Shown piece after piece: positions 2,845 to 35,700 of a stretch of 62,805 nucleotides of DNA. Origin of the DNA: Verrucomicrobiia bacterium (GTDB taxonomy: Bacteria > Verrucomicrobiota > Verrucomicrobiia > Verrucomicrobiales > DEV007); assembly GCA_020439925.1 (NCBI GenBank), contig JAGRPC010000023.1:1-62805 (forward strand), given 5' to 3'. The stretch's first letter is position 1, and the number at the start of each line of letters is the position of its first letter. Both the position numbers and the translations under genes were made by a program. Below the pieces are notes generated by a model that saw nothing but the letters and a program-made list of their open reading frames with translations, had not been told where the DNA came from and searched no databases.

Positions 2845-3036
2845 ACGGGACCCAACACGGGGGGAATTGAACCCCTGCCAGGAGTTGAGACAGCCAGTTG
2901 CGGTTTTTTCGTGCTCTGCCGCATGACCGAAACTTGTCCTTGATCGCTCCTTCGCGAGGGATCACTTTTCATCATCGCCACGGGACCCAAGACGGGGGGA
3001 ATTGCACTCCTGCCAGCACTTGAGACAGCCGGTGGC
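2845..3036. repeat. Two imperfect 57-bp direct repeats (2845-2901, 2980-3036) with a hairpin between them
   Basis: ACGGGACCCAAcACGGGGGGAATTG...CCTGCCAG..TTGAGACAGCC repeated; tgatcgctccttcgcgagggatca stem at 2941-2964. Confidence 0.75.
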
Positions 3037-3950: not shown

Positions 3951-4556
3951 TCAGGAATCAGATTCCACCGTGAAAACCCCGTCCCCGAGTTCTAGGGCGG
4001 TGGCGTCGAGGAGCGCCCCGGCGAATCCCTTCCCGGTCGCCTCCCCTTTCGCTTTCCCCGCTGCGATCTTCTCGGCCAGGTTCAATCCCGCCATGTCCTT
4101 CACATGAGCCCAGTGCTTCTCTCGCAGCCTCACGAGGGTTTCCAGATCCCGGACGGAGAGCTCACCCCGGTCGGCTTTCGCCTCCAGGTCGGTCATGGCC
4201 CGGTCGGCAAGGGCCTCGATCCTTTCGGCCTGCTCGATCTGCGCGTCCCGGATCTCCCAGGCCAGGGCATGAGCCCGCGCGTGTTCACCGTCCATCTCGC
4301 GGGTCAAAGCCACTTCGTTCCTGGCGCTCGCCCCTCTCAACACCGCCGCGGCAAGATTGACGCTTACCTTGGCTTCCGCGCTGAATCGCCGAACCGTCCA
4401 GGCTCCGGCCATCGCCTCCGGCAAACGGGCCATCGCCCGATCACGTGCGGCCGTTCGGGAGGGACCTTTCAGGACGACGGAACAATCGGCCATGCTCGAA
4501 GGTAACCGCCCCCGCTCGTCCGGCAAGCGCGCGCGTCGCTCTCTTAGAAACCCCAT
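3951..4556 (-). CDS. Hypothetical helical protein, possibly HTH/terminase-small-subunit-like
   Basis: 201 aa Ala/Arg/Glu-rich helical ORF next to the tRNA 3' end; resemblance is only architectural. Confidence 0.35.
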   Translation of the reverse strand: MGFLRERRARLPDERGRLPSSMADCSVVLKGPSRTAARDRAMARLPEAMAGAWTVRRFSAEAKVSVNLAAAVLRGASARNEVALTREMDGEHARAHALAWEIRDAQIEQAERIEALADRAMTDLEAKADRGELSVRDLETLVRLREKHWAHVKDMAGLNLAEKIAAGKAKGEATGKGFAGALLDATALELGDGVFTVESDS

Positions 4557-4731
4557 GCCGTGACACCGTCACCAGCGAAAGGCGGGCAGGAGTGCCTCAG
4601 AAGGTCCCATCCCGGCCGAATTGTTTGGAACGGTTCCGGACCTCGGACTTCTTTGACTTGGAGCGCCTTGTTGTCACTTTTGTTGCCACTTTGACAATCC
4701 GTCCGTCACAACTCGTTTATTTTCAACAGAA

Positions 4732-4803
4732 TGCCCCCGCCGGGAATCGAACCCAGATCTAGAGTTTAGGAAACCCTCGTTCTATCCGTTGAACTACGGG
4801 GAC
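4732..4803 (-). tRNA. tRNA-Arg(CCT), left att copy
   Basis: Reverse complement GTCCCCGTAGTTCAACGGATAGAACGAGGGTTTCCTAAACTCTAGATCTGGGTTCGATTCCCGGCGGGGGCA forms a cloverleaf with anticodon CCT and GTTCGA T-loop; CCA not encoded. Confidence 0.95.
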
Positions 4804-4909
4804 AAAGCCTTATTTCACAAGGAATCTGGCGTGCTTCGGGTGTTTGATGTTGCCATTTATACGGAAAAATTATACGGTGAGGCAGTTCTTCGGCAAGAAT
4901 TCCTTCACC

Positions 4910-6013
4910 ATGAAAGCACCCGCCAAGACCTGGACTCCGACTAAGGTTCCCCGCCTCTACAAGCACTCTTCAGGCACTTATTATGCCCGCATCTCCGCCG
5001 GAGGCAAGGAAACCTGGCGCAGCCTCAAGACGAAGGTTTTCTCCGTCGCAAAAGCCGAACTCGAGGAGAGGCTCCGATCGGCAGAGTTCCAAGCAGAAGT
5101 CACGCCGGAAAGCCCGCTCGGAGAAAAGCTGACGGGAGCCGATGCCTTCAAGATCCGCGAGCGGCAGATCGAGAACAATCCCGCTCTGAAGAAATCGACT
5201 CGCCACTACCTTACCCAGATCATCGTTTCGCTCAAGAAAAGCTGGCCCGAACTGGAAGGTTCCGACCTTCAGAGGATCACCGCGGAAGATTGCGAAGAAT
5301 GGTCGGGGAGGTTCGCCAAGACGGTTTCGCCGACCCGCTTCAACGCACACTTGAGCATGTTGCGCTCGCTTTTTGAGATTGCGATCGAGAAGGGTTCTCG
5401 CCGCTCGAATCCGGCAATCAAACTGAAACGCAGACGCGTCCGCTTCAAAGACCTCTCGAACCGTCTTCCTTCACGGTCCGAGTTCCTGAAGTTCGTTCAC
5501 ACCATCAGAACCGCCCAAGGTCGATTCTCGCGGCATTGTGCCGATTACGTCGAATTCCTTGCTTACACTGGAGTCAGAAGAGGGGAGGCTCCGTGGATTC
5601 AATGGAGACACTGCGACTTTGAAAAGGGAGAGATCCTGATCGAAGGCAACCCGGAGGACGGGACCAAAAACCACGAGGTCCGCCGCGTGCCCATGGTTCC
5701 CGCAGCAAGAACTCTGCTTGAGCGGCTACGCGACGAAAACCCGCAGGCGAAACCGACCGACCGAGTTCTCCGGGTGAAAGCTGCCAAGAAGGCGATGGAC
5801 CGCGCCGCCTCAAAAGCTGAGATCCCACGACTCACACACCACGATCTTCGCCATTATTTTGCGACGATTTGTATCGAGTCCGGGGCTGACGTTCCGTTAG
5901 TTTCAAGATGGCTCGGACATAAGGACGGGGGAGCTTTGGCGATGAAGGTTTATGGTCATCTTCGCAACGAGCACTCGCTTGCGGTTGCTTCCCGCGTGTC
6001 CTTCGCCGCTTAA
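4910..6013 (+). CDS. int: Tyrosine integrase of the element
   Basis: N-terminal arm-binding-like region; TGVRRGE, TKN, HDLRH, LGH and VY catalytic motifs. Confidence 0.95.
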   Translation: MKAPAKTWTPTKVPRLYKHSSGTYYARISAGGKETWRSLKTKVFSVAKAELEERLRSAEFQAEVTPESPLGEKLTGADAFKIRERQIENNPALKKSTRHYLTQIIVSLKKSWPELEGSDLQRITAEDCEEWSGRFAKTVSPTRFNAHLSMLRSLFEIAIEKGSRRSNPAIKLKRRRVRFKDLSNRLPSRSEFLKFVHTIRTAQGRFSRHCADYVEFLAYTGVRRGEAPWIQWRHCDFEKGEILIEGNPEDGTKNHEVRRVPMVPAARTLLERLRDENPQAKPTDRVLRVKAAKKAMDRAASKAEIPRLTHHDLRHYFATICIESGADVPLVSRWLGHKDGGALAMKVYGHLRNEHSLAVASRVSFAA

Positions 6014-6275
6014 CATCTTCCGACCACTGTTTGGCACCCGGGGAAGGAGAAGGATTCTTCGTCTCCGCCTTCTTAACCTTGCGTGATTTTGTGCCCGCGC
6101 CCACATAACGACCCGCTTCTTTCAGAAGGCGATCCACCTCGCTCTTCGGAATCATCGTCCGCCCGAGGTCGGTCACTGCCTGAACCTTCCCGGCGTAAAG
6201 CTGCCGGTAGGCCCAAGTCCTCTCTTTGCCGAACACCGCGGCGAACTCGGTCGGCGTGAAGGTGACCTTTTCCAT
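5832..6275 (-). CDS. Excisionase-like HTH DNA-binding protein
   Basis: FTPTEFAAVFGKERTWAYRQLYAGKV...GRTMIPKSEVDRLL is a HTH_17/Xis-like pattern; convergent with and overlapping the integrase 3' end. Confidence 0.7.
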   Translation of the reverse strand: MEKVTFTPTEFAAVFGKERTWAYRQLYAGKVQAVTDLGRTMIPKSEVDRLLKEAGRYVGAGTKSRKVKKAETKNPSPSPGAKQWSEDVKRRRTRGKQPQASARCEDDHKPSSPKLPRPYVRAILKLTERQPRTRYKSSQNNGEDRGV

Positions 6276-6338
6276 GCTGGCGAACCGATCACCTTGAGCG
6301 GCATCAAAAATGGCAAAATTCAAGCGTCCAGAAGTGGA

Positions 6339-6370
6339 CTTGAAACAGTTTCATGGGATTCTGTTTCAAG
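6339..6370. other. loxP-like recombination site, left (13-6-13, spacer CATGGG)
   Basis: cttgaaacagttt-catggg-attctgtttcaag; arms are 11/13 inverted match; 6346-6367 is a perfect 22-bp inverted repeat of 6982-7003. Confidence 0.8.
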
Positions 6371-6371
6371 G

Positions 6372-6399
6372 ATTCTACTAAAAACTTGGTGAGGTTCAA
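6372..6399 (-). promoter_or_regulatory. Putative sigma70 promoter inside the invertible segment, pointing outward
   Basis: Minus strand TTGAAC-16 nt-TAGAAT directly before the left recombination site. Confidence 0.6.
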
Positions 6400-6412
6400 T
6401 CCTGAAAGTGGC

Positions 6413-6979
6413 TCATTTCCAAGTTCGCTCCATGAGGCTCCTCTTCTCGGAGTCCTTCACGTCGAGGTAGATGCTGGTCGTCTCGATCTGGGAATGTCCG
6501 AACATTTCTTGAAGGAATTTCAGAGGAAGTCCAGCCATGACCCCCCGAACCCCGAAAGCATGACGAAGCCCCTTGGGCGTCGCATGGACTCCCTCGATTC
6601 CAGCGTCGGCCATCGTACGCTTGATGATTCGCCAACCAGTGGTTCTTGAGAACGGCCAAATTCGCTCCTCTCCCGGCTCGGTCTCCAGTTCGCGCAATCG
6701 CTTTCCGAGCCAACCGGGGATGGGTATGCGGCGGAACTCTTCGATCTGCCGCTTCTTGAGCGTACGGACACGAAGGATGCAAGGTTCCAGGTCGATGTCC
6801 CGCTTCGTGGTCGACAAGGCTTCGGAGATTCGGATTCCCGTGTAGTGGAGCGCAATACAGAACAAGGCTTCGCGAACTGGCAGGCGACGAGAGTGATCTA
6901 AGAACTCCCGCCCCTCCGCGTGAGTGAGGTACTTGCGGCGCCCTTCGAGGTCGTAGGCAGAATGTGGGACTCGTTTCAT
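6413..6979 (-). CDS. Small tyrosine recombinase (invertase-type, catalytic domain only)
   Basis: RKYLT, TGIRISE, KGLRH, FGH, TTSIY motifs; ~188 aa like FimB/FimE-size enzymes; flanked by inverted sites. Confidence 0.9.
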   Translation of the reverse strand: MKRVPHSAYDLEGRRKYLTHAEGREFLDHSRRLPVREALFCIALHYTGIRISEALSTTKRDIDLEPCILRVRTLKKRQIEEFRRIPIPGWLGKRLRELETEPGEERIWPFSRTTGWRIIKRTMADAGIEGVHATPKGLRHAFGVRGVMAGLPLKFLQEMFGHSQIETTSIYLDVKDSEKRSLMERTWK

Positions 6980-7010
6980 GCGAAACAGAATCCCATGAAA
7001 CTGGTTCAAA
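6979..7010. other. loxP-like recombination site, right (spacer CCCATG, inverted relative to left site)
   Basis: tgcgaaacagaat-cccatg-aaactggttcaaa; the spacer contains the ATG of the next gene. Confidence 0.8.
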
Positions 7011-7792
7011 AATCGTTAACGTCCTTGCTTTCAGTGATTTACCTCCTGATTGGCGCCTCGTTTTCGTCCCTTTCCGCCCAGGACAACAATCCTCCCCATC
7101 TTGCTCACTACGATCCCACCAAGGGATTCAAGCCTGCCCAGGCAAATTTGACCGAGATTTTCCTTCAAATCGCGGGAAGCCTCGAATGCCACGGCAGTCC
7201 CGAGCCTTACCTCCGTCACATCCAAAGTGAGCACGCACGGGTTTCTCAACTCTACAAGGAGAAGACCGGAAAGAAGCATGCCGGACGAATGCCCACCCAC
7301 ATGTCGGCCGCATACGTCGATCTCATGGTGAAAAACTGGAATACCCTCTCCTCGCCTCTTCAGCTTGAGCCCTTCGCCAAGGAGATCGGGCGGTGCGCCC
7401 GCGAGGGCATCATGGGAACCCGGCTCGGCGGTACCTATGCCGTCCAAATCTTCAACGAACATCAAAGGGCGGTCGCCGCCCGGATGAAGGGGCAATCGAA
7501 CGCGATTTCGGGATTTGAGGAGCTACGCCAGAGAATGGAGAAGGACCTTCTCTTCGGAAAACTCGGCGGGAGTGCCGAAGGGCTTGAAACTTCCCGCCGC
7601 GACGCGGTGAGCTACGCGCTCACGATTACGGATCGCTTCTGGCGGAAATCGGAAGAGGTCCGATCGATTGCTGAGCCTGCAAAGGCGGCGGAAGTCAACC
7701 AGGGTTTGAAGGAGTTCTTTTTGGACTTGGGATATCTGGCTCAATCGGAACTGGAGATCGGGATTCTGGAATCAGCCCTGCGCCAGCTCTAG
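6995..7792 (+). CDS. Secreted hypothetical protein
   Basis: MKLVQKSLTSLLSVIYLLIGASFSSLSA-Q signal peptide pattern; start codon lies within the recombination-site spacer. Confidence 0.75.
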   Translation: MKLVQKSLTSLLSVIYLLIGASFSSLSAQDNNPPHLAHYDPTKGFKPAQANLTEIFLQIAGSLECHGSPEPYLRHIQSEHARVSQLYKEKTGKKHAGRMPTHMSAAYVDLMVKNWNTLSSPLQLEPFAKEIGRCAREGIMGTRLGGTYAVQIFNEHQRAVAARMKGQSNAISGFEELRQRMEKDLLFGKLGGSAEGLETSRRDAVSYALTITDRFWRKSEEVRSIAEPAKAAEVNQGLKEFFLDLGYLAQSELEIGILESALRQL

Positions 7793-8646
7793 CGATTGAC
7801 CTCGGAAGGTGCCGGCCCCTCTTTAGCAGCGTTTACCGTTGGAACCACCGGCTTGGAGTCCCCGGCGTCCACCAGTTGGACATTTCCGATACTGAGTTCC
7901 TTTGCCAGTCGCTGGGGAGCAGGAGAATTGGCCGCCCCTTCCGCTGAAGGCTCTCGCTCAGCCGTATCTCTTGCCTCACTCGTTCGGACGATGACTGCCT
8001 CAGCCTCCACCTTTGTCCCCTGGGTCGCAACGTTCTCGGCGAAAACGGGCCGGTCCAATACACCGTAAGCTTCTGCACGCTTGCCCTGGTCCCAGGCACG
8101 GATGAAATCCTCACGGTCAGGTTCTGGGATACGCTGCAAATCGGCCGAAATTTGAGAGTGGGAAAGTTGGTCGCGGAGACGCTCAGCTTCCTTCTGCTTC
8201 ACGATTTCGGGAAGCTCGCTGAATTCGTATTCCTTGCGGCGGACGCCTTCCCATACGCGGTGGCTCATTTCAGCCTTGCCGTGTTCGCTTAGGCGTTCCC
8301 AGGCGCTCAGATAGAACTTCTCCAGGCTGCTGAAATCCGCCTTAGTGAAGTGGTCCTTATCCAAAAACTCGGCGAACTGCCTCCGTTCTTCTAGATTCAA
8401 AGCCGCTTCACGTTGGGCAATGAGGACCGCGACAGCAACTTCCTGAAGGGCTTTCTCGCGTTCTTCTTTGGTTGCTTCGGCATCCTTATGGTCGAGTTCG
8501 ATGATTCGGTTCTTGGCTCGTTCCAGAAGGTGCCCCAGCAGCATCGGATTCGGAAGGGCGGCACCACTTGTCAGCATTGCTTCGATTTCTTTGACGGCTC
8601 GACGCAATTCGGCCGCCTCCACCTGTTCCAAACCTCTTCCATTCAT
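7789..8646 (-). CDS. Hypothetical helical/coiled-coil protein
   Basis: AAGGAGG Shine-Dalgarno before ATG at 8646; charged helical sequence. Confidence 0.7.
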   Translation of the reverse strand: MNGRGLEQVEAAELRRAVKEIEAMLTSGAALPNPMLLGHLLERAKNRIIELDHKDAEATKEEREKALQEVAVAVLIAQREAALNLEERRQFAEFLDKDHFTKADFSSLEKFYLSAWERLSEHGKAEMSHRVWEGVRRKEYEFSELPEIVKQKEAERLRDQLSHSQISADLQRIPEPDREDFIRAWDQGKRAEAYGVLDRPVFAENVATQGTKVEAEAVIVRTSEARDTAEREPSAEGAANSPAPQRLAKELSIGNVQLVDAGDSKPVVPTVNAAKEGPAPSEVNR

Positions 8647-8836
8647 TCCTGAAACCTCCTTTTGAGATAGAATCATATCACAGAATTGTTGCAGAATTAT
8701 GACGGCCCGAAGTGACCGGAACTCGCCCGTTCCGGGAAGCTGGCCACGGATTGCCAAATCAAGGATTGACCCTCGAGGCATCGTTGGATACCCTGGTTGA
8801 AAGTCCCAGAAAACCTTTCGTCCCGAGAGCTTTACA

Positions 8837-9508
8837 ATGAACTCACCTCTCCAAGAACGGCACCGGGACCAGATTTTCGGCGGCACGACCTACGCCCAGC
8901 ACGGAGAAGACCTGATGCTCTGCAATCTCTTCCGATTGATGGGCGTCGATCGGCCGGGATACCTCGACCTTGGCGCCCACCATCCCTACGTGATCTCCAA
9001 CACCGCCCTACTCTATGAGCGGGGCTCACGTGGCGTGAATGTTGAAGCCAATCCGCTTCTCGTCGAGGCTTTCCGTGAGGCAAGGGCTGACGATTTGACG
9101 ATCAACGTCGGAGTAGGTCCCAAGCAGGGCACTTTGCCGTTCTATCGGTTCACGAAGCGGAGCGGCCTCAATACTTTTTCGGAAGCCATTGTAGCGGCAA
9201 GGGCCGACCGCCATCCTGTCGAGGAGGTGGTCCACCTCCCGGTCTGGACAATTACCAAGATCGTCGACGAATGTTGCGGCGGCGTCTACCCGCCACTGCT
9301 GTCGATGGATCTGGAGGGCCTTGACTTGGCGGTCTTGAAAACGGCGGACTTCTCAGCTTCGCGGCCGCGGGTTGTGATCGCGGAACTCCAAGGAGCCGAT
9401 GCGGCGGAAGCTCGACTATTGATGGCCGAACAGGGCTTCCGTGTTCTGTGCCGGATGGTCTCGAACCTCCTGTTCGTCCACGAGGATTGGATTGGAAAAG
9501 TCGCCTGA
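8837..9508 (+). CDS. FkbM-family SAM-dependent methyltransferase
   Basis: YAQHGED, YLDLGAHHP..SNT, GVNVEAN, LSMDLEGLD motifs. Confidence 0.9.
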   Translation: MNSPLQERHRDQIFGGTTYAQHGEDLMLCNLFRLMGVDRPGYLDLGAHHPYVISNTALLYERGSRGVNVEANPLLVEAFREARADDLTINVGVGPKQGTLPFYRFTKRSGLNTFSEAIVAARADRHPVEEVVHLPVWTITKIVDECCGGVYPPLLSMDLEGLDLAVLKTADFSASRPRVVIAELQGADAAEARLLMAEQGFRVLCRMVSNLLFVHEDWIGKVA

Positions 9509-9613
9509 ACCGCCGTTAACCATGCGTTTTAGCAGGAGAGTCTAGCGCGAGAGCGCGGAATTTCTGAGGTCGCCGTCGAGGAACAGACCTCTGAGGGGCG
9601 AGGTGCCTTGTAA

Positions 9614-9949
9614 TTATAAAATCGGAATCGACCAATATTGGTTTACAATTTCTTTCGAAGTTCTAATTGAGTCGTTATTCAATCGATCGGAATCAACAAA
9701 CAAATATATTTCGAGGGTCCTGAACTGAGACGTTAGACATGAATTTACTCGATTCTTTAAAAGTCTTTCATCTTTCGTGGCTAGGTTACGAACGCCTTCC
9801 AGCTTAATTGCGACTTCAGAGACCAATGCGGCTTGCTCAATGAGTGCATTCTGAACTGGATGCAACCACCTTAGGAACACAAATACGGCCAAAAGCAATG
9901 AAATCTGACCGATTACCAACCCTTTATAAAAATCCAAAGTCACTTTCAT
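9614..9949 (-). CDS. Putative immunity protein for Rhs module 1 (N-terminal TM)
   Basis: AT-rich small ORF immediately downstream of the toxin CT. Confidence 0.65.
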   Translation of the reverse strand: MKVTLDFYKGLVIGQISLLLAVFVFLRWLHPVQNALIEQAALVSEVAIKLEGVRNLATKDERLLKNRVNSCLTSQFRTLEIYLFVDSDRLNNDSIRTSKEIVNQYWSIPIL

Positions 9950-9955
9950 TATCTA

Positions 9956-11746
9956 CTAACTGTCGCACGGTGATCCACCGGACCATTCTCCCTCTGCAGG
10001 CGCCTTCGGTCCAAGTTTTCTCATTATTTCACCCAATCTTCCGGCTAAGCTTTCCGATGGAGCGAAAGGTTTAGTCATTTTTACGGCATCACCTATCTTG
10101 TCTCCCAATAAATCCGCAAAACCCGTAGGAAGCGGTAGATCAGTTCCTACACTAGGAATTGCCCAATTTTCATCTTCGGTTGGAACTTCGTATTCATATT
10201 CATATTGCCTCTGTCCTGATCTATAACAAATCTTTCCATCGCAAATGCATTTAATTTCCGTCGTTGTCGTCCATTTGAATATGACTTTTTCAATTGCAAT
10301 AATTTGAGTTCCTCTTTGAGGTTTACCTCCTTGCGAGACTGGATCAATTTCCAGCTCCCATTTACCATCACTAGTTTTCCAAAACGGCGGCCCATCTTCT
10401 TCGCAGGTCAATCCGAGGTAGTCAAGATCGTTTACTCCGCCATTCCCTCCGTATCTATACAAATTGAGCCCTCCCCGCTCCCCTATCGGATCCCGATTGA
10501 TCCATCTTCCCAGCATTGGAACGTAGAAACGGTAGCCGTAGTTATACCAACCGGTCTCCCCGTCCCGGAACTGTCCTTGGAACCCGAAGTCCCAGGCGTA
10601 GCCGGAGGTGGGGCGCGGCGAAAAGTCCGACGCCATGATCCGGCGGACGCCGAAGGCCGAGTAGGCGTAGCGCTCCAGAACAGTCCCGGAGGTGTTCAAC
10701 ACCGAGATCCCGTTGAAGTAGTCCATCGTCGCGTAGAGACGCTCATCGAGCGTGCCGTTGCCATCGGTGTCACGGTCACGGAGGACCAGCTCATCCCGGT
10801 GGCCGGGACGTTCACCCCACAGGTAGGAGCGGGCGGCGGAAGTTGCGGAGCCGACCCGCTCTTCCATGGGCTTCCAGCGGTCGCCCCAGTAGGTGTGGGT
10901 GGTTACTTCGTCGACGGTTCTCGTAATGCGGCGGCTAAGGCCGTCATATGAATACTCTCCGACAAGATGAATCCAATCGTCTCCTTCTGTTTCAACACGA
11001 ACGATTCGATTCCAGGCGTCCCAAATCACGTTGAGGAAAGGTTCACCGTTCACACTCTCGCCCGGAGGAAGTTTCGTCGCATTGCCGGCTCGGTCATAGG
11101 AGAGCAGGGCGCTGCTCCCGTCGATCTGGGTGAGCTGGTTGTCCTGGTTGTTCGAACGGCTCTGATCGAGCACAACTGAACCGTTCGCGTTTTTGCGATA
11201 ACCCAGCCAGTTGCCGGTGGGATCGTATTCAAAATCCTCCGTCTCCCCCGGAACACCCCCGACGGTGGTGCGGTTGGTGTTCAAGGTTCCCACCGCGTCC
11301 CGGATGACCTGATACAGGCCGTCGTAGCCGTAGGACTCGTCCTGGCCGCTTGCTGCCACGAGGTTCTTCTTCCAGGTCCGATTGGAGGCTTCGTTGTAGC
11401 CCCATTGCCAGGCATCGATGGGCGTGCCGGTGGAACTGTTCTGCCAGCGCATCTCCTGCACCCGCCCGAAGTGGTCATAGCCGTCGTAGGGATCGCCAGA
11501 GTCACCTTCGCTGCCTCCGCCGGGACGGATCATGGACATTTCGACTCCGGGTTGGGGGTAAGCGACCTTCACGAAGCGGCCCAGCCCTGCTCTCGAATAC
11601 TCGACCTTGTTGCCGCCCTCCCCAGAGATCGCGGCTGACTTCACCAGCCCGAAGAGGTCGTCGATGCTGTCGCTCGAGCCGTAGCCGAGGTTCACCACCC
11701 GGCCGTTGGGGTATGTCATCGAGGTTCGACGTGCCGTGTTGCTCAT
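9956..11746 (-). CDS. Rhs C-terminal module 1 (YD repeats + RHS core + Cys-containing CT)
   Basis: Starts MSNTARR; RWINRDPIG...LDYLGL autoproteolysis signature; unique AT-rich CT. Confidence 0.9.
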   Translation of the reverse strand: MSNTARRTSMTYPNGRVVNLGYGSSDSIDDLFGLVKSAAISGEGGNKVEYSRAGLGRFVKVAYPQPGVEMSMIRPGGGSEGDSGDPYDGYDHFGRVQEMRWQNSSTGTPIDAWQWGYNEASNRTWKKNLVAASGQDESYGYDGLYQVIRDAVGTLNTNRTTVGGVPGETEDFEYDPTGNWLGYRKNANGSVVLDQSRSNNQDNQLTQIDGSSALLSYDRAGNATKLPPGESVNGEPFLNVIWDAWNRIVRVETEGDDWIHLVGEYSYDGLSRRITRTVDEVTTHTYWGDRWKPMEERVGSATSAARSYLWGERPGHRDELVLRDRDTDGNGTLDERLYATMDYFNGISVLNTSGTVLERYAYSAFGVRRIMASDFSPRPTSGYAWDFGFQGQFRDGETGWYNYGYRFYVPMLGRWINRDPIGERGGLNLYRYGGNGGVNDLDYLGLTCEEDGPPFWKTSDGKWELEIDPVSQGGKPQRGTQIIAIEKVIFKWTTTTEIKCICDGKICYRSGQRQYEYEYEVPTEDENWAIPSVGTDLPLPTGFADLLGDKIGDAVKMTKPFAPSESLAGRLGEIMRKLGPKAPAEGEWSGGSPCDS

Positions 11747-11855
11747 GGGGTCTGGTTTCGTGAACAAGGGCGGAGTTGCCCGTCGTGAAGGTTTGTGGAT
11801 TCAACTTTCTAGGACGGCCGCCATCTTCGTCTATTTGGACTGCCTCCGTCTATTT

Positions 11856-12344
11856 CTACCATGTGAACGGCTCCCTCAAACTTCGTAGAAACCTTTCTTG
11901 GTACTCATTCTCATTCATTCTCATTTCGATGATCATGTCTCCTTCAACGACACTCACTTGATACGAAATAAGGTTTATTCCATTTAATAGTGCCTCAAGT
12001 TTATCACCAAACTCATCGTCGAATAAAACTTTTTCACCTGTTTTTGGGGCCGTCGCAGAAACTTTAGTTGTGCCTGGTTCATTCAAAAGATCCATAACAA
12101 CATAATCTTCTATCTTGAAATTCACTTCGCCGTTCAGCTTTTTTTCAAGTGATTCGAGCACATCTGACAGGGTCATTCGGGGAATCGCTTCCGACATCAA
12201 CCGGCGTCGAGACTTCTCGAGATTTGAAACCGATCTGAATGTGTAAAGAATATGAAATTCACACAAAAGCCAAACTGCAATGAAAATAGAAATGAGGATT
12301 GATGAAGTCCATGCAAATAAATTTCTTGCCGCCGATTTAATCAT
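11856..12344 (-). CDS. Putative immunity protein for Rhs module 2 (N-terminal TM)
   Basis: ATGA overlap with toxin stop; AT-rich. Confidence 0.7.
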   Translation of the reverse strand: MIKSAARNLFAWTSSILISIFIAVWLLCEFHILYTFRSVSNLEKSRRRLMSEAIPRMTLSDVLESLEKKLNGEVNFKIEDYVVMDLLNEPGTTKVSATAPKTGEKVLFDDEFGDKLEALLNGINLISYQVSVVEGDMIIEMRMNENEYQERFLRSLREPFTW

Positions 12345-14152
12345 TTCCCCAAGCAATCATCGTTCGCTTTGTCTTGTGCCTCTTTGATTGCTTTCGCGAG
12401 TGCTCGGCTGAGAGAAGCCCATCCGTCTTCAAGATTAAGCCGTGGACTCTGGATATTTTGCGTTTTCGTTGGTCCAGGACGTCCGCATTCGCAGCATTGA
12501 TATTCTTGTTTTCCGCTCCAATGTACAAACTTGAATCCACCTGGACCGGAGTATGCGTCGGCTGCCTCCTTCAATTTGTCAACTATCACATCGCCAGCGG
12601 CTTTACCAGTTCCCGAGGCACTTCCTGCGGCGTTGGAACCGGCTCCGGAGAGGAAATCTACAACACTCCCTCCAGCGGCGGGACCGAAGTTTCCGAGCGC
12701 CTCCATTAGTTCAGTCATAAGTTCAGCGATTTCCTTGTCGTTTTTTCCGACCGCGCTTTCTCCTTCTGGTAGCAACGCAATATCAGATTGACCTCCCATC
12801 AAGATTGACTCTCCGTTGCTGCAAAGACCTAGGTAGTCCAAACGATTTATCGGTTTATTGTATGTGAATCGATACAGATTGAACCCACCTAGTTCTTTGA
12901 TTGGATCCCTGTTGATCCACCTCCCCACCAGAGGAACAAATACCCGATAGCCGTAGTTATACCATCCGTTCGCCTCATCCCGGATCTGACCTTGGAACCC
13001 GAAGTCCCAGTCGATGTCCGAGGTGGTCCTCGGCGTGTAGTTTGGTGCCATGACCCGACGTACCCCGAACGCACTGTAGGCGTAGCGCTCCTGCACCACT
13101 CCGGACGTGTTCAGCACCGCCGTCCCGTTGAAGTAGTCCATTGTCGCGAAGAGTCGCTCGTCGAGGCTCCCGTCGCCATTGGTGTCCCGGTCCCGCAGGA
13201 CCAGCTCGTCGCGGTGGCCGGGGCGCTCGCCCCAGAGGTAGGAGCGGGAAGCGGCGGTCGCGGAAGCCACCCGCTCTTCCAAGGGCTTCCAACGGTCGCT
13301 CCAATAGGTGTGGGTCACCGTCCCTCCGGACTCCTTCGTGATCCGGCGAGTCAAGCCATCGTAGGCGTTCTTCTGCACGCTGGTCCCGTTTTCGTCCTTC
13401 ACCTCGACGAGCCGGTTCCACGCGTCCCAGGTGTTCGCGAAATGCTTCGTCCAGTCGCCTCCGGTTCCTGGACGAGTCTTCGTCGCGTTCCCGGCTCGGT
13501 CGTATTCGACGCCTTGGCTCGATCCGTCGATCTGCGTCAACTGGTTGTCCTGATTGTTTGAGCGGGTCCGGTCCAGGACGGGTGCGCCGTTCTCGTCCTT
13601 GCGGTAGCCCAGCCAGTTCCCGGTGGGGTCGTAGGTAAAATCCTCCTCCTCACTGGGCACTCCGCCGATGGCGGTGCGGTTGGTGTTCAAGGTTCCCACG
13701 GCGTCACGGACGACCTGATAGAGGCCGTCGTAGCCGTAGGCTTCGTCTTGCCCGGAGGAAGCAACGAGGTTCTTCTTCCACGTCCGATTGGAAGCCTCGT
13801 TGAAGCCCCATTGCCAGGCATCGATGGGGGTGCCCGTGAAACTGCTCTGCCAGCGCATCTCCTGCACCCGCCCGAAGCGGTCGTAACCGTCGTAGGGGTC
13901 GCCCGAATCACCCTCCAATCCCCCTCCGGGGCGGATCATGCTCATCTCCACAGCAGGCTGCGGGTAGGCGATCTTGACGAATCGGCCCAGGCCCGCACGG
14001 GTATATTCCACCTTGTTGCCACTCTCGCCGGAGATCGCCGCGCTCTTCACGAGGCTGAAGAGATCGTCAATCGATCCCGTCGAGCCATAGTCCAGGTTCA
14101 CCACCCGGCCATTCGGGTAGGTCAGCGATGTGCGCCGGGACGTGTTGCTCAT
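12341..14152 (-). CDS. Rhs C-terminal module 2 (Gly/Ala-rich helical CT)
   Basis: Starts MSNTSRR; RDPIKE...LDYLGL; unique CT. Confidence 0.9.
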   Translation of the reverse strand: MSNTSRRTSLTYPNGRVVNLDYGSTGSIDDLFSLVKSAAISGESGNKVEYTRAGLGRFVKIAYPQPAVEMSMIRPGGGLEGDSGDPYDGYDRFGRVQEMRWQSSFTGTPIDAWQWGFNEASNRTWKKNLVASSGQDEAYGYDGLYQVVRDAVGTLNTNRTAIGGVPSEEEDFTYDPTGNWLGYRKDENGAPVLDRTRSNNQDNQLTQIDGSSQGVEYDRAGNATKTRPGTGGDWTKHFANTWDAWNRLVEVKDENGTSVQKNAYDGLTRRITKESGGTVTHTYWSDRWKPLEERVASATAASRSYLWGERPGHRDELVLRDRDTNGDGSLDERLFATMDYFNGTAVLNTSGVVQERYAYSAFGVRRVMAPNYTPRTTSDIDWDFGFQGQIRDEANGWYNYGYRVFVPLVGRWINRDPIKELGGFNLYRFTYNKPINRLDYLGLCSNGESILMGGQSDIALLPEGESAVGKNDKEIAELMTELMEALGNFGPAAGGSVVDFLSGAGSNAAGSASGTGKAAGDVIVDKLKEAADAYSGPGGFKFVHWSGKQEYQCCECGRPGPTKTQNIQSPRLNLEDGWASLSRALAKAIKEAQDKANDDCLGK

Positions 14153-14240
14153 GAGTTCAGTGAGATGCGTAGCTGAAGCTAGAATCGGAATCGGTATCTG
14201 GACCACTCGTGATGTTCTTCGTATAGGGAGATTGCTAGTA

Positions 14241-14621
14241 TCATCGATTTCTGTTCTCGCTAATTATTTCAATCGCCTCAATTAAACTAATATCGTCAGT
14301 CAGCTTAGACCTGGCTTGCGACTGAACCCAATCAAATCTGAAGTCGAATTCGTAGTTAGAAATTGCTCGAAGCTCGTTTCCAAGGAGATCATTCGGACGC
14401 AAAAATCCAATTTTTGTCGATGCTTGATTAGATACCTCTTTCAAGAGGCCGATTAGCCAAGATTTTTGGTATCTCCCCATTGGATCAAAGAGTTTTATGA
14501 TTTCGTCATCAGTCAAACATGCTCGATGGCCTAGAATTCGCTTCCTAGAACGTCGGAGATTTACTTGCAACCATACCCCAAACATGGCTAAAGCTACGAA
14601 AATCACCAAGACGAAAATCAT
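14241..14621 (-). CDS. Putative immunity protein for Rhs module 3 (N-terminal TM)
   Basis: MIFVLVIFVALAMFGVWL TM helix then basic stretch; directly downstream of CT. Confidence 0.7.
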   Translation of the reverse strand: MIFVLVIFVALAMFGVWLQVNLRRSRKRILGHRACLTDDEIIKLFDPMGRYQKSWLIGLLKEVSNQASTKIGFLRPNDLLGNELRAISNYEFDFRFDWVQSQARSKLTDDISLIEAIEIISENRNR

Positions 14622-14629
14622 GACTGCCG

Positions 14630-16465
14630 TCAGAATAATGTTGGATCAAAGACGCAAATATGAGCACAGGATATCGCCAAGCCCTCCAGGTATCCAGCGG
14701 ATCCTGCTGCAAGAGCCGCGCCAAGGGGCGCAGCGGCGCGACCAAACAAACGCATCCCCCTGCCTCCGCCAAATGACATCATACTTGGAATAGTGGTCCA
14801 AATAGGGCCAGAAATTCCCCCCTTAGAAACTCCTTTGCCAAATAATGGCTTAACAGGGAGTGGTGCGACAAGAAGCGAAACACCTAGTGCCCCCATAGCA
14901 ATATCAGCTCTGTGATAAGCCATGCAGTTTATAAAACACTCCGAAAATGGAGAGTGCCCACCTCCGCCGCCACCTCCAAGTGGCTTGCCACCACCTCTAC
15001 CACCACCGGGCTTGCCACCACCGCCGCAATTCATACTCAACTTAGCATTTCGGCAATCCGCAAGACATTCCTCCCTGTCTCCGGGCTGAGGAAAGCATCC
15101 TTGGCATTGATCGTCGCATGGAACGCATGTCCAAAGTCCGAAGCGGTCGAACTTGTTGGTGGAATCATTATACGAGAAAGTATAAAGACCAACAATGCTC
15201 CCGTCTTCTCCAATCGGATCTCTGTTGATCCACCTGCCGAGAAGCGGGACGTAGAACCTATAGCCGTAGTTGCTCCACCCCGTCTCATTATCGCGGAACT
15301 GCCCCTGGAATCCGAAGTCCCAAGCATGGCTGGAGGTGCTTCGCGGAGTGAAGTCCGCCGCCATGATCCAACGGACGCCGAAGGCCGAGTAGGCGTAGCG
15401 TTCCAGGATCGTTCCCGAGGTGTTCAAGATGGCCGTCCCGTTGAAGTAGTCCATCGTCACGTAGAGACGCTCGTCGAGACTCCCGTTGCCGTCGGTGTCC
15501 CGGTCGCGGAGGATCAGCTCGTCCCGGTGCCCGGGACGCTCACCCCACAGGTAGGAGCGGGCAGCGGTGGTTGCGGAGCCAATCCGCTCCTCCAAGGGCT
15601 TCCAACGGTCACTCCAGTAGGTGTGGGTCACCACACTGGAAGCCTCTTTCGTGATCCGGCGAGAGAGGCCATCATAGGCGTTCTTCTGCACGCTCGCCCC
15701 AGTCTCATCCTTGACCTCCACGAGCCGGTTCCACGCGTCCCATACCGGCTGGTAGCTTTTGCTCCAGTCTCCGTTCGTTCCAGGCGCGGTCTTCGTCGCA
15801 TTGCCGGCTCGGTCATAGGAGAGCAGGATGCTGCTCCCGTCGATCTCGGTGAGCTGGTTGTCCTGGTTGTTGGAACGGGTTTGATTGATGATCATCGAAC
15901 CATTCGCGTCCCGGCGATATCCCAGCCAGTTGCCGGTGGGATCGTAGGCGAAGTCCTCTTCTTCTCCCGGAACACCCCCAATGGCGGTGCGGTTGGTGTT
16001 CAAGGTTCCCACCGCGTCCCGGATGACCTGATACAGGCCGTCGTAGCCGTAGGACTCGTCCTGGCCGCTTGCTGCCACGAGGTTCTTCTTCCACGTCCGA
16101 TTGGATGCTTCGTTGTAGCCCCATTGCCACGCATCGATGGGCGTGCCGGTGGAACTGCTCTGCCAGCGCATCTCCTGTACCCGCCCGAAGCGGTCGTAAC
16201 CGTCGTAGGGATCGCCGGAGTCGCCCTCCGATTCACCCCCGGGGGGGATCATGCTCATCTCCACGCCGGGCTGGGGATAGGAGATTTTCACGAACCGGCC
16301 CAGGCCGACCCGGGTGTAATCCACCTTGTTTCCGCTCTCCCCGGAGATGGCGGCGGACTTCACCAGGCTGAAAAGGTCGTCGATGCTGTCGCTCGACCCG
16401 TAGCCCAAGTTCACCACACGCCCGTTGGGGTAGGTCACTGAAGTGCGACGGGAAGTGTTGCTCAT
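14630..16465 (-). CDS. Rhs C-terminal module 3 (Cys-rich + hydrophobic, possible membrane-active CT)
   Basis: Starts MSNTSRR; RDPIGE...FDRFGL; CT has Gly linker and hydrophobic small-residue helices. Confidence 0.9.
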   Translation of the reverse strand: MSNTSRRTSVTYPNGRVVNLGYGSSDSIDDLFSLVKSAAISGESGNKVDYTRVGLGRFVKISYPQPGVEMSMIPPGGESEGDSGDPYDGYDRFGRVQEMRWQSSSTGTPIDAWQWGYNEASNRTWKKNLVAASGQDESYGYDGLYQVIRDAVGTLNTNRTAIGGVPGEEEDFAYDPTGNWLGYRRDANGSMIINQTRSNNQDNQLTEIDGSSILLSYDRAGNATKTAPGTNGDWSKSYQPVWDAWNRLVEVKDETGASVQKNAYDGLSRRITKEASSVVTHTYWSDRWKPLEERIGSATTAARSYLWGERPGHRDELILRDRDTDGNGSLDERLYVTMDYFNGTAILNTSGTILERYAYSAFGVRWIMAADFTPRSTSSHAWDFGFQGQFRDNETGWSNYGYRFYVPLLGRWINRDPIGEDGSIVGLYTFSYNDSTNKFDRFGLWTCVPCDDQCQGCFPQPGDREECLADCRNAKLSMNCGGGGKPGGGRGGGKPLGGGGGGGHSPFSECFINCMAYHRADIAMGALGVSLLVAPLPVKPLFGKGVSKGGISGPIWTTIPSMMSFGGGRGMRLFGRAAAPLGAALAAGSAGYLEGLAISCAHICVFDPTLF

Positions 16466-16630
16466 GGGGCAGGGTTGGTGGATTAAGGATAAGGAAAAAC
16501 AGGTGCCAACGATATTGGAGCATGAAACCGTAACAGCAGTTTCGAATTGATGAGTAGTTGGTTTGGGCGCGGCCAAATTTACATGCCATGAATATGCGAC
16601 AGATCACTGTTGAGGGCGCACTTTATATCT

Positions 16631-17080
16631 TTACTGATTGATGGTTTCATCTTCAAGCACCTTCCAAACGCGTTCGAACATCGCGGCAGCTGTACGATTC
16701 TCACCTGATAGTTCCTTGGTGCCGACATTATTCAATCTTACGTTCATGCCACGCCATTCAATAATTCTGAATTCACCGTCCGGAACACTTTGGCCGATTT
16801 CAAACGAATTCCCTTTACTAAAGAGATTGTCAAGCAATGCGGCTAATTCTGCGGCTAACTCAGCCCTGACGGTCACCACTATAGGTGTTGAATTTCGATG
16901 TTTAAATTCACCTTCCAGCGAATGGAGATTAAGATAGGCATCCCATGAATCTGGATATGAAACTTGCGAGAATTGAACGGTGTCAGGACGCCTTATATGC
17001 ATGCAAGATTGAAATGGCAGAGTTAACAAAATCGTCAACGCTAAGGCGGCATGAGAGGGAATTCTTACAAGATATGTCAT
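16631..17080 (-). CDS. Putative immunity lipoprotein for Rhs module 4
   Basis: Hydrophobic leader ending FQSC (lipobox-like); downstream of CT. Confidence 0.65.
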   Translation of the reverse strand: MTYLVRIPSHAALALTILLTLPFQSCMHIRRPDTVQFSQVSYPDSWDAYLNLHSLEGEFKHRNSTPIVVTVRAELAAELAALLDNLFSKGNSFEIGQSVPDGEFRIIEWRGMNVRLNNVGTKELSGENRTAAAMFERVWKVLEDETINQ

Positions 17081-17137
17081 CTTAGTAGATTATGATATTC
17101 ACCCACTGTACATAGTTACCATTTGAAAATCCGGGCC

Positions 17138-18910
17138 TCACCCTCTTCTTTGCATCCATCCGTGTGTCTTCCATCCGTAGCCTTTGAGTTGATCGAGACG
17201 TTCATCGATCTCATCTTCACATCGCGGATCGCCCTCACACTCCTTTTTGCATTTCTTCAAGCATTGTCTCTCAGCCATCGCTGCAGCTCCTTCAGAAATT
17301 TTTGGGCTTTTTCCTTTCTTCCAACCCGGTCGCTCCAAACCGTCGCCCGAACAATCAACATCATCATGATGCTTGTCTTCATGTTCCTTCACACATCGCT
17401 GAATGCATGATGTTCCTTTTGTTGGGGGGCCTTGCTGACCTGGTCCCACGTTCGGAATCCAGCTGCAACTGTATTTTTGGCCACCGCAGCAAATGACTCC
17501 TCCTCCATCATTTCCAGCAAGCGAAGCGTCCTCAGCTGCCTTGCAAGGATCGCAACAATCAGGCGGGCCATCGGTTGGTTCTAATCCTAGAAAATCGGCA
17601 ACATCTAAGGCTGCATTACTGACAAACGTATAAAGGTTCTCCCCTCCACTTTCCCCGATGGGATCCCGATTGATCCACCTGCCAAGGAGCGGGACGTAGA
17701 ACCGGTAGCCGTAGTTGTACCAGCCCGTCTCCGCGTCCCGAAACTGCCCCTGGAAGCCGAAGTCCCAAGCATGGCTGGAGGTGCTTCGCGGGGAGAAGTC
17801 CGCCGCCATGATCCGGCGGACGCCGAAGGCTGAGTAGGCGTAACGTTCCATCACGGTTCCAGAGGCATTCAGAACCGCCGTCCCGTTGAAGTAGTCCATC
17901 GTCGCGTAGAGACGCTCGTCGAGCGTTCCGTTGCCGTCGGTGTCCCGGTCCCGCAGGACCAGGTCGTCCCGGTGCCCGGGACGCTCGCCCCAGAGGTAGG
18001 AGCGGGCGGCTGAGGTCGATACGCCCGTCCGGTCCTCGAGCGGCTTCCAACGGTCGCTCCAGTAGGTGTGGGTCACTACGCTTGAGGCCTCCTTGGTGAT
18101 GCGCCGGGTCAGTCCGTCGTAAGCATTCTTCTGCACGGATGCCCCAGTCTCGTCCTTGACCTCCACCAGCCGGTTCCACGCGTCCCACACGGGCTGGTAG
18201 CTCTTGCTCCAGTCTCCGTTCGTTCCGGGTGCGGTCTTCGTCGCATTGCCGGCACGGTCGTAGGAGAGCAGGGAACTGCTCCCGTCGATCTGGGTCAACT
18301 GGTTGTCCTGGTTGTTGGAGCGGCTCTGATCGAGGACGACTGAACCGTTCATATCCTTCCGGTAGCCCAGCCAGTTGCCGGATGGATCGTATTCAAAATC
18401 CTCCTCCTCACCGGGAACGCCCCCGACGGCGGTGCGGTTCGTGTTCAAGGTTCCCACCGCATCCCGGATCACCTGATACAGGCCGTCGTAGCCGTAGGCT
18501 TCATCCTGACCGCTGGCAGCAACGAGGTTCTTCTTCCACGTCCGGTTGGACGCTTCGTTGTAGCCCCACTGCCAGGCGTCAATGGCCGTGCCGCTGGAGC
18601 TACTTTGCCAGCGCATCTCCTGCACCCGGCTGAAGCGGTCATAGCCGTCGTAAAGGTCTCCGGAGTCTCCCATGCTTCCGCCACCGGGGCGGATCATGCT
18701 CATCTCCACCCCAGGCTGCGGGTAGGCGATCTTGACGAATCGGCCCAGGCCTGCACGGGTGTATTCCACCTTGGTGCCGCTCTCGCCGGAAATCGCAGCG
18801 CTCTTCACGAGGCTGAAGAGGTCGTCAAGCGATCCGGTCGAGCCATAGCCCAGATTCACCACCCGGCCGTTCGGGTAGGTCATCGATGTGCGCCTTGCGG
18901 TGTTACTCAT
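17138..18910 (-). CDS. Rhs C-terminal module 4 (Cys-rich CT with HExxH zincin-like motif)
   Basis: Starts MSNTARR; RDPIGE...ADFLGL; HEDKH plus downstream SEGAA. Confidence 0.9.
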   Translation of the reverse strand: MSNTARRTSMTYPNGRVVNLGYGSTGSLDDLFSLVKSAAISGESGTKVEYTRAGLGRFVKIAYPQPGVEMSMIRPGGGSMGDSGDLYDGYDRFSRVQEMRWQSSSSGTAIDAWQWGYNEASNRTWKKNLVAASGQDEAYGYDGLYQVIRDAVGTLNTNRTAVGGVPGEEEDFEYDPSGNWLGYRKDMNGSVVLDQSRSNNQDNQLTQIDGSSSLLSYDRAGNATKTAPGTNGDWSKSYQPVWDAWNRLVEVKDETGASVQKNAYDGLTRRITKEASSVVTHTYWSDRWKPLEDRTGVSTSAARSYLWGERPGHRDDLVLRDRDTDGNGTLDERLYATMDYFNGTAVLNASGTVMERYAYSAFGVRRIMAADFSPRSTSSHAWDFGFQGQFRDAETGWYNYGYRFYVPLLGRWINRDPIGESGGENLYTFVSNAALDVADFLGLEPTDGPPDCCDPCKAAEDASLAGNDGGGVICCGGQKYSCSWIPNVGPGQQGPPTKGTSCIQRCVKEHEDKHHDDVDCSGDGLERPGWKKGKSPKISEGAAAMAERQCLKKCKKECEGDPRCEDEIDERLDQLKGYGWKTHGWMQRRG

Positions 18911-18958
18911 GGGGTTGGATAATCGCTCTGGATAGATGCTCGATTGTTGAGGATGATG

Positions 18959-19456
18959 TTATCTCGATAAAGTTGAATTCCGCAAATCACCGTCGAGGAA
19001 GAGGCCTCCATTCGCCGAGGTGAAGGCAAAGCGGGTCAGCTTGCCGGTTGCCTTGACCTTCATCCCGGCCCGCGCCTTGTCGAGAAACACTTGCTCGGTA
19101 GGCGGCAGCATCACCCAAAGGCGGACAGTAAAGTCGAGGCCCGAGACATCGACGGGCATGTCGCGCACGCCGATGCGGATCTTGTCGGTGTTGTCCGCCT
19201 CGCCGGCCCAGGGCGCCCACTCGCCGAGTTCGACTTCAATGGTGACCGTTTTACCCACCGCGTCGCGCTGGAGGATCTCGTTGGCCGTGCGGCGGGCCGC
19301 TTCGATTTGGCTGGGTTGTTTCAGATCTTTGGTCACCTCGCGGGGGAGGAGGGCGATGACGTCCTTCAGCGAGGCGAAGTCCGGTTTGGCGGGGGCTTGG
19401 GCGTGGAGGATCGGGGCAAGGAGGAGAAAGAGGATGGTGAGGGTCACCGCGTTCAT
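18959..19456 (-). CDS. Secreted hypothetical protein inserted in the Rhs array
   Basis: MNAVTLTILFLLLAPILHA-Q signal peptide; GC-rich unlike neighbouring immunity genes. Confidence 0.7.
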   Translation of the reverse strand: MNAVTLTILFLLLAPILHAQAPAKPDFASLKDVIALLPREVTKDLKQPSQIEAARRTANEILQRDAVGKTVTIEVELGEWAPWAGEADNTDKIRIGVRDMPVDVSGLDFTVRLWVMLPPTEQVFLDKARAGMKVKATGKLTRFAFTSANGGLFLDGDLRNSTLSR

Positions 19457-19533
19457 AATGTTGGGTGTTTGTGAGAGTCTAGAAATGTTGCAAAACCCCA
19501 GAATCTTCGAAGGCAAACGGAGGCAACAGTCTC

Positions 19534-19896
19534 TTACGAGTCAAAAAATTCATTTGATGCAATACGTAGAGCCTCCTGAAATGCCTTTTGGAGAAGTGGG
19601 GGGGACGTCAATAGCTTTCGCAAATCAAAGATCTTGTCTCCTTCAATCAAACGACTATTCGAATCGTCAATTAACACAAAATCCCACCTCTTAGAATGGT
19701 TCTTGTCATAAGTGTTCCTCAATTCAACAGCCGTGGGTGAAATTTTGGTGTGGCTATATCGCGAGGAGTAAAACCTGCCGTCATTGTCTTGCATCAAGAT
19801 AATCACAAAATCTTTATCAAACTTGATATAAGTTTGAACCTGATCCAAGCCCGAGTGAACCCAATCCCCAAGAAGTTTCATTATATCTATTCCCAC
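19534..19896 (-). CDS. Putative immunity protein for Rhs module 5
   Basis: Overlaps toxin 3' end; AT-rich, beta-rich 120 aa. Confidence 0.65.
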   Translation of the reverse strand: MGIDIMKLLGDWVHSGLDQVQTYIKFDKDFVIILMQDNDGRFYSSRYSHTKISPTAVELRNTYDKNHSKRWDFVLIDDSNSRLIEGDKIFDLRKLLTSPPLLQKAFQEALRIASNEFFDS

Positions 19897-29670: not shown

Positions 29671-29698
29671 CCGAGACTCCTTTTCTCCAAATATTATA

Positions 29699-29724
29699 GT
29701 ATTGATAAAATACATTATCATTAC
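29699..29724. other. dif-like recombinase core site (10-6-10)
   Basis: gtattgataa-aataca-ttatcattac, 9/10 inverted match, just upstream of the recombinase. Confidence 0.65.
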
Positions 29725-30951: not shown

Positions 30952-31445
30952 GTTTAGAAGAAATGGAAGTCTCCGCATTTAATAGTCCTCTTGAGACAGG
31001 AGTTCGCTCTTTAGGCGTCCTTGCGGCTGCACATCCGTTGGCCTTTGATTTGCAGCGTCTAGTGGTATTCGATCATCTGGTCGTTCATACTGCCGACCTT
31101 GGTGGTCCGGAAAGTCTCCATCCTAAGGTCCCGCTTAGATCTGCGGAAATGCTAGTCAGAAGAGGAGTTATTGAAAGAGGAATAATGCTTATGGTAAGTC
31201 GCGGGTTGGTTGAAAAAGTAGTAGATGAGCAGGGATTCTCATTTCGAGCGAGCGAGACAGCCCTCGCCTTTCTAGATAGCCTTGAAACAAAGTATATGTG
31301 CGCCCTCAAAGAAAGGGCCCGCTGGGTATCCAACGAGTTTGGTGCTCTTTCCGATACGGATATTAAGATTGTTATGGAAAACATTTTTGAAAAGTGGGTG
31401 GAACAATTTCACTCTACAGATCTCCAATCGGAGTCGCAGCTATGA
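30936..31445 (+). CDS. ABC-three-component middle component (LmuC-like)
   Basis: FNSPLETGVR...FDHLVVHT..GGP.SLHP pattern; overlaps both neighbours. Confidence 0.8.
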   Translation: MEDGLSLEEMEVSAFNSPLETGVRSLGVLAAAHPLAFDLQRLVVFDHLVVHTADLGGPESLHPKVPLRSAEMLVRRGVIERGIMLMVSRGLVEKVVDEQGFSFRASETALAFLDSLETKYMCALKERARWVSNEFGALSDTDIKIVMENIFEKWVEQFHSTDLQSESQL

Positions 31446-35612: not shown

Positions 35613-35631
35613 TCTAGGAACAAAGCTCAGA

Positions 35632-35700
35632 TTCAGGAAAATGAAAGGAACGGGAATTTTTTTCATTTCACGTCTTGACAGGGTGTTTCACTTAAATGAA
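35632..35700. promoter_or_regulatory. Divergent promoter region with two TTCA-N6-TGAA operators
   Basis: 35632-35645 and 35687-35700; TTGACA at 35675-35680. Confidence 0.6.

Follow-up and report, generated by a model that had tools for sequence, protein, structure and literature searches.

Does a recombinase gene enclosed between two inverted sites at the end of a mobile element act as a switch for its neighbours, and if so, for which of them? The question is raised by a 62,805-nt stretch of DNA from a Verrucomicrobiales genome (the window), in which such a segment lies between a gene for an excisionase-like protein (xis) and a gene with a signal-peptide-like start (SEC). A preliminary description of this DNA had proposed a bistable switch that could be tied to excision of the element. 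Our comparison with homologous loci favours, with a probability of roughly 0.7, a phase-variation switch in which the enclosed recombinase inverts its own 640-bp segment and thereby turns a predicted promoter towards SEC.

The mobile element

The cassette is located at the end of a 56.9-kb mobilisable element integrated at tRNA-Arg. The element is bounded by two 72-bp direct repeats of tRNA-Arg(CCT) on the minus strand, 56,857 bp apart (4732–4803, a tRNA copy that marks the attachment site, and 61589–61660), and its integrase, a tyrosine recombinase with a SAM-like domain (4910–6013, plus strand), is adjacent. An Rfam scan of positions 4000–9000 returned tRNA as the sole match. The element also encodes a TrwC relaxase (50394–53819, minus strand; 236 bits), a coupling protein (54161–55720, plus strand; T4SS-DNA_transf, 27.9 bits) and RepA, ParA, ArdC and RHS modules. 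A VirB4-type mating-pair ATPase, searched for with the single family PF19044, was not found in the 93% complete genome, and we therefore label the element mobilisable.

The order integrase, xis, cassette, SEC, CNV (the convergent partner of SEC) and xerD-like gene is common to the three relatives examined, in which the XerD-like recombinase gene (28699–29721, minus strand, in the window) directly follows CNV. In the window an RHS block is inserted between these two genes; it opens with an RHS gene, after which come five repeats of the RHS C-terminal module that differ in their tips and are separated by small genes (9956–25438, minus strand). Further cargo includes a three-component ABC CTD6 locus (29848–33340) and a pair of genes for an XRE protein and an IrrE-like peptidase (34271–35666), and four iteron-like 23-nt direct repeats lie beside repA (57789–57925). 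Outside the element, a 61-nt direct repeat (87% identity; 2841–2901 and 2976–3036) is found upstream of an HsdM gene.

Sites and recombinase of the cassette

The recombinase gene is flanked by two 28-bp sites, each an imperfect palindrome, at 6341–6368 on the xis side and 6981–7008 on the SEC side. They form an inverted repeat that matches at 27 of 28 positions, with one mismatch, and includes a perfect 22-bp arm (6346–6367 and 6982–7003), the longest in the window among pairs less than 2 kb apart (12–16 bp in 30 shuffles). The window allele carries one altered base in the right inner arm. A direct check of the sequence bore out this 22-bp repeat and the oppositely oriented spacers CATGGG and CCCATG of the preliminary description; of the 13-6-13 loxP-like layout proposed there the spacers stand, whereas the 13-bp arms do not: symmetry extends to 11 of 13 positions in the left site and to 8 of 13 in the right one. 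Comparison of homologues delimits an 8-bp core (site positions 11–18) that is always identical between the two sites of one locus and variable between loci, flanked by arms of roughly 10 bp (conserved over ~10–11 bp across homologues). In the window the core is TCATGGGA at 6351–6358 and lies inverted at 6991–6998, where the right site encodes the first codons of SEC. As described earlier, the right spacer supplies the SEC start codon (6995–6997) and the minus-strand ATG of the left core opens only a 16-codon ORF (6354–6304), whose length looks unconserved when homologue flanks are compared by eye. A 98-codon plus-strand ORF beginning at 6353 runs antisense to the recombinase gene. A weak terminator-like hairpin at 6339–6326 was discarded as a candidate, its conservation not being apparent by eye in homologues.

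The enclosed gene (6413–6979, minus strand) encodes a tyrosine recombinase of 188 aa that carries PF00589 (78 bits, cut-off 27.1) and no other domain, that is, the catalytic domain only. Its catalytic residues R50, K75, R139, H162 and Y171 are invariant among 52 aligned homologues, and so is Lys136, which replaces the usual first His of the HxxR motif in all 52. Scores against the Fim-type invertase models NF007370 and NF007371 were 29.1 and 38.5 bits (cut-offs 221 and 222), and the protein stayed far under the cut-off of every NCBIfam model that it matched. The enclosed enzyme very probably catalyses inversion of its own segment. A Shine-Dalgarno-like motif precedes the recombinase gene in 40 of 43 loci and is absent in the window, where a 6-codon ORF from the right core (6976–6996, minus strand) ends in a stop codon that overlaps the recombinase start (ATGA); this ORF may provide translational coupling where the Shine-Dalgarno motif is absent. 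Decay of the window allele was considered as the cause of the missing motif and set aside: since the homologues P0005 and P0032 share the same short spacing, the absence looks lineage-wide.

Matched cores in homologous loci

Loci came from three sources, namely the best 80 of 537 matches when genomes were scanned with the recombinase alignment, 24 loci from metagenomes scanned with the SEC alignment, and further genome draws; removal of duplicates and of weaker alphaproteobacterial matches left 51 distinct loci including the window. The site matrix scored the arms only, with the cores left out of the scoring. It placed a site upstream of the recombinase gene in 45 of the 51 loci, and 36 of these had a second site downstream as well. 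At all 36 two-site loci the two cores were identical and inverted, in 19 different versions, which upholds the proposal of a self-contained invertible cassette. Direct-orientation pairs did not occur (0/36); as paired sites are always inverted, the segment cannot be deleted. Because related loci are not independent, the core test was restricted to a single locus from each 8-bp core class; all 17 matched, compared with at most seven in 200,000 shuffles. Within-locus identity was 100% at positions 11–18 and 59–82% at the adjoining positions 8–10 and 19–21, the pattern that would be expected if strand exchange requires core homology.

The remaining loci vary in several ways. Nine of the 45 have an upstream site only, with no second site in the available DNA, which for several of them includes only short flanks; among the six of 51 loci that lack a scoring upstream site, five have matched repeats by direct search. 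In five of 34 loci the segment is enlarged to 0.97–3.7 kb by extra DNA between the recombinase gene and the distal site. These segments (L032, L033, L070, L120 and L165) contain extra genes at this position, the first of which in L032 and L033 are reminiscent of a defence ATPase and a DNA adenine methylase. A later draw of seven loci comprised two duplicates, three matched pairs with 7-bp cores and two loci without a clear pair. Among alphaproteobacterial relatives, an inverted score of at least 14 was reached in 13 of the 61 loci examined, and most have no flanking repeat pair. Related recombinases with matched inverted sites were also observed beside other neighbour genes (L044, L048, L034, L041, L045, L164 and L204–L206), several of which have signal-peptide-like starts. 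The cassette thus seems to be portable between gene neighbourhoods.

Promoters and orientation

We define state A, found in the window, as the recombinase gene lying head to head with SEC and state B as the flipped segment. The promoter noted in the preliminary description, TTGAAC-16-TAGAAT at 6399–6372 (minus strand), is present: this predicted sigma70-type promoter (P1) is part of the segment, stops 3 nt short of the left site and points out through it. By itself the motif is not above chance in the window (one found, 0.7 expected), so support for P1 comes from its positional conservation. In 21 of 34 loci a TTG-(16-18)-TAnnnT motif lies immediately inside the distal site, compared with 2, 0 and 1 of 34 at the other three site flanks; the other 13 loci lack the strict pattern. 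Some of the enlarged segments, too, have kept the motif at their distal site. No comparable promoter motif precedes SEC in state A (0/34), and the layout of state B would put P1 17 nt before the SEC ATG.

On the SEC flank, a GTTAAC box just outside the right site (7015–7020) is conserved in alignments inspected by eye. Read inwards, the TTAAC box of this flank is doubled in other lineages (also by eye), where the boxes are followed by a TAnnnT that touches the site (13/34 loci); the window retains the box without the TAnnnT −10 element. We infer that these boxes are part of the recombinase's own promoter, located outside the segment, and that GTTAAC is a candidate regulator site. A search of the opposite flank for a promoter that could serve the recombinase gene in state B was negative (a motif in one of 34 loci).

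Both orientations, as had been anticipated, occur among homologues, in very unequal numbers: 40 of 41 SEC-linked loci are in state A, with the promoter facing away from SEC, and one is in state B, compared with 15 in state A and five in state B among the sphingomonad relatives described below. The sole SEC-linked state B locus, L022, comes from a metagenome assembly, the same genome as L129, L160 and L198. L022/L198 is an exact recombinant, in which the outer arms keep their flanks and the inner arms are exchanged. Its flanks are collinear with those of the sister locus L199, while 9255–9933 is inverted at 81.5% identity, and the two recombinases are sisters with short branches in a quick tree. 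The gene order integrase, xis, cassette and SEC is retained in the flipped genome. Mis-assembly of this locus is unlikely, since the 28-bp repeat is shorter than a read. Additional genome draws, which did add loci, contained no second SEC-linked state B. Eight sequencing runs with the window's element, out of 16 listed, yielded no strand-switch joint in contigs of depth ~3–8, an assembly level at which rare variants are lost.

SEC and its convergent partner

SEC (6995–7792, plus strand) is the likely target of the switch. It adjoins the recombinase gene in 41 of 51 loci, in several families, and is the most constant neighbour. The site-encoded start MKL[VI][QH] is found in 37 of 120 SEC homologues, and 101 of 107 have a basic and hydrophobic N-terminus according to a simple rule rather than a signal-peptide predictor. 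The protein of 265 aa has a signal-peptide-like N-terminus and a confidently predicted, all-helical fold (pLDDT 91.5) and belongs to a small family (97 representatives). Searches of Pfam, NCBIfam and PHROGs assigned SEC to no family, and 52 long homologues gave only two matches, both under the cut-off. In Foldseek nothing reached E 0.001; the best structural Z was 5.3 (rmsd 4.2, 128 residues aligned), and there was no usable Atlas match. Forms of 619–2000 aa were not found, although this is a weak test, and none of 89 pattern matches in viral contigs was a SEC relative.

The neighbouring gene CNV (7789–8646, minus strand) is convergent with SEC in 34 of the 37 SEC loci that have enough flank. 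A segment of ~60 aa is shared between CNV and long SEC homologues, and a CNV-like segment of this kind occurs inside SEC in 23 of 53 loci. In long homologues (P0232, P0244, P0254 and P0245) the CNV-derived segment was observed at three different positions. CNV likewise has no known family and a blank Foldseek search; its structure matches are helical hairpins only, up to Z 8.8, over residues 1–79. A complex prediction for SEC and CNV scored 0.01, which speaks neither for nor against an interaction. The C-terminal tail of CNV is net-positive in 24 of 34 cases, a property that recalls type IV secretion signals. Our guess is that this uncharacterised gene pair acts in transfer or exclusion.

Related layouts without the cassette or with other targets

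In 11 SEC loci without a recombinase, an XRE-like gene occupies the same slot (L103, L104, L108, L110, L112, L115, L121, L123 and L134–L136). Two of these XRE-like genes were scanned, and one passed the HTH_3 cut-off. The gene is followed by xis in seven of the 11 loci and by a XerD-like gene in three. Upstream of SEC, all 11 loci have operator-like palindromes (in one of them only a single arm is exact) and nine have a promoter-like motif, both patterns having been derived from these same 11 sequences. The putative palindromic operators number two to three and fall into three different types. Cassette and XRE-like gene thus appear to be two architectures that both gate SEC, and their presence in the same slot offers a natural comparison of two ways to control one gene. 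A SEC tree labelled by N-terminus (109 of 120 rows) is too mixed to order the two.

A sister clade in sphingomonads has the same cassette layout before an EAL gene (for example L176:1-4591, L056, L049, L062, L072 and L182). In an annotated example, the EAL gene is followed by genes for spore-coat-U pilins, a chaperone and an usher. The segment could be oriented by an EAL gene in 20 of the 32 loci examined (15 in state A, 5 in state B), the state B rows do not form one clade in a quick tree, and the 7-bp cores matched in 19 of 19 measurable cases. This cassette is likely to be a phase-variation switch of pili. Since the sphingomonad version occurs in cultured strains, inversion is directly testable there. 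In L180/L193 and L185/L195 two related recombinase genes lie side by side, convergent in one genome and in tandem in the other.

Would the proposed switch extend to excision?

The xis-like gene (5832–6275, minus strand; 147 aa) overlaps the 3′ end of the integrase gene in antisense by 182 bp (5832–6013). The product resembles HTH_17, but with 25.6–25.9 bits it is below the Pfam cut-off of 27 in the window. Among 14 homologues scanned two exceeded this cut-off, and an alignment of the family matched no solved excisionase.

The strongest alternative to our main reading makes this gene the second output of the cassette: state A would feed xis and keep the element competent for excision, whereas state B would starve xis and express SEC, so that excision and the surface trait exclude each other. 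The geometry agrees, as in the window 97 nt separate the end of P1 from the start of xis, both on one strand, the order integrase, xis, cassette and SEC is unchanged in the flipped genome, and xis directly follows the regulator in seven of 11 XRE-type loci. Of the 31 compact two-site loci, 14 have xis next to the distal site, on two separate tree branches, but the other 17 have no adjacent xis. Furthermore, the xis-facing state is the commonest (40/41) and the elements are integrated wherever the flank shows, so this state cannot simply mean "excise", and the HTH_17 result (2 of 14 homologues, no solved excisionase matched) also counts against the toggle. We consider such a toggle rather improbable. 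That the cassette affects excision at all is doubtful, the more so as most loci are in the xis-facing state; xis, and hence excision, may be affected as a lineage-limited feature. Of the earlier proposal that inversion moves the promoter from xis to SEC, the SEC half is supported, since the flipped layout would place the predicted promoter directly before SEC, whereas xis is adjacent in only 14 of 31 compact loci. The symmetric bistable switch tied to excision is not borne out, given the ratio of 40 to 1 and the same 14 of 31. If the xis link were nevertheless true, DNA inversion would control excision of the element.

A model for the cassette

According to the phase-variation model, the recombinase would invert its own segment between the two matched sites. 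In state A, P1 would face outwards across the left site (in the window, towards xis) and away from SEC, leaving SEC off by default. After inversion to the rare state B, 17 nt would separate P1 from the start codon that the site supplies to SEC, and the minority of cells in this state would switch SEC on. On/off control of SEC by inversion is quite likely. Transcription from P1 would start within an arm to which the recombinase is expected to bind, and bound enzyme would probably damp the promoter; we give repression by bound recombinase about an even chance. A recombinase that damps P1 would fill the place that the XRE regulator and its operators hold in cassette-less relatives. Flipping would also separate the recombinase gene from its outside promoter, which could bias switching.

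Could repression be the main function and inversion a rare by-product? The recombinase would then act mainly as a repressor, with the sites as its operators, or as a dimer resolvase of the excised circle. The 40 to 1 bias, the nine single-site loci, the overlap of sites and promoter start points, which is operator-like, and the lack of joints in reads (eight runs, low-depth contigs) all agree with this, as does the fact that most alphaproteobacterial relatives have no repeat pair and that the best plasmid matches lie in such hosts. However, operators need no matched cores, yet 36 of 36 and 19 of 19 pairs match; the pairs are always inverted, so no segment would be deleted; exact recombinants are known in two clades; and the element has a separate XerD-like recombinase. 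This alternative is therefore quite improbable. Still less credible is a selfish or cargo-capturing unit that inserts before genes for exported proteins and regulates them only incidentally: five of 34 segments are enlarged to 0.97–3.7 kb and relatives precede different genes, but a segment between inverted sites cannot be excised, the site encodes the start codon and first residues of SEC, and SEC linkage is kept across 41 loci in several families.

The phase-variation model can be extended to a broader and more tentative scenario, in which a self-inverting recombinase, serving as both repressor and switch, took the place of the XRE regulator, the flip moves the promoter from xis to SEC, and the cassette was redeployed in sphingomonads. 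If this were true, the flip would give the element a heritable memory at the DNA level, "mobile" versus "settled", SEC would work together with CNV, and the same portable cassette would serve before EAL and pilus genes. Apart from this scenario, the loci represent a family of self-contained tyrosine-recombinase switches of 0.62–0.65 kb, which occurs in Verrucomicrobia with no fewer than 19 core variants and has a sister family in sphingomonads, and they point to SEC and CNV as an uncharacterised gene pair of no known family. Moreover, the compact enzyme with its naturally varied cores provides a candidate set of orthogonal inversion switches.

Comparison with known systems

In the literature that we surveyed, which consisted of titles and abstract openings and included few subscription papers, neither this cassette family nor an inversion switch facing an excisionase is described; supplements of inverton surveys may list such loci. 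It is generally known that recombinases can be encoded close to or within invertible regions, according to the available part of PMC9881135. A close likeness in layout is the Salmonella H segment (Hin, hixL/hixR), which, in the available part of PMC4122451, holds hin and an outward fljB promoter within the segment and switches a surface gene next to it. Hin belongs to the serine recombinases (PMC8987985, available part), whereas the cassette has a tyrosine recombinase, palindromic sites and a matched 8-bp core, and because of this enzyme it is not a member of the H-segment type. It also differs in being carried by a mobile element, in a site that encodes the start codon of the target and in having xis on its other side.

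Invertible promoters of Bacteroidales ICEs likewise combine a local invertase with an integrative element, and the OFF orientation prevails there; as far as the available part of PMC8748976 describes them, their invertase is encoded upstream of the region that inverts, and they control resistance and glycan genes. In our cassette the invertase gene lies inside the segment instead.

The E. coli fim switch (FimB/FimE, fimS) resembles the cassette in its tyrosine recombinases of ~190–200 aa, in promoter inversion and in on/off control of a surface trait, and the sphingomonad sister cassette even precedes pilus genes. The fimB and fimE genes lie outside fimS. In contrast, the recombinase gene of the cassette lies inside its segment, and the protein scores only 29–38 bits against the fim invertase models. 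Sites of the Cre/loxP and ResD type have an asymmetric core, at most 8 bp long, between a pair of palindromic arms, with the recombinase gene beside the site. The cassette is loxP-like in its asymmetric 8-bp core, which is identical between partner sites in 17 of 17 core classes. Simple tyrosine recombinases usually have a core-binding and a catalytic domain, as stated in the available part of PMC8138268. Unlike Cre/loxP and ResD, the cassette has its sites inverted around the gene, arms of ~10 bp and a protein that shows the catalytic domain only.
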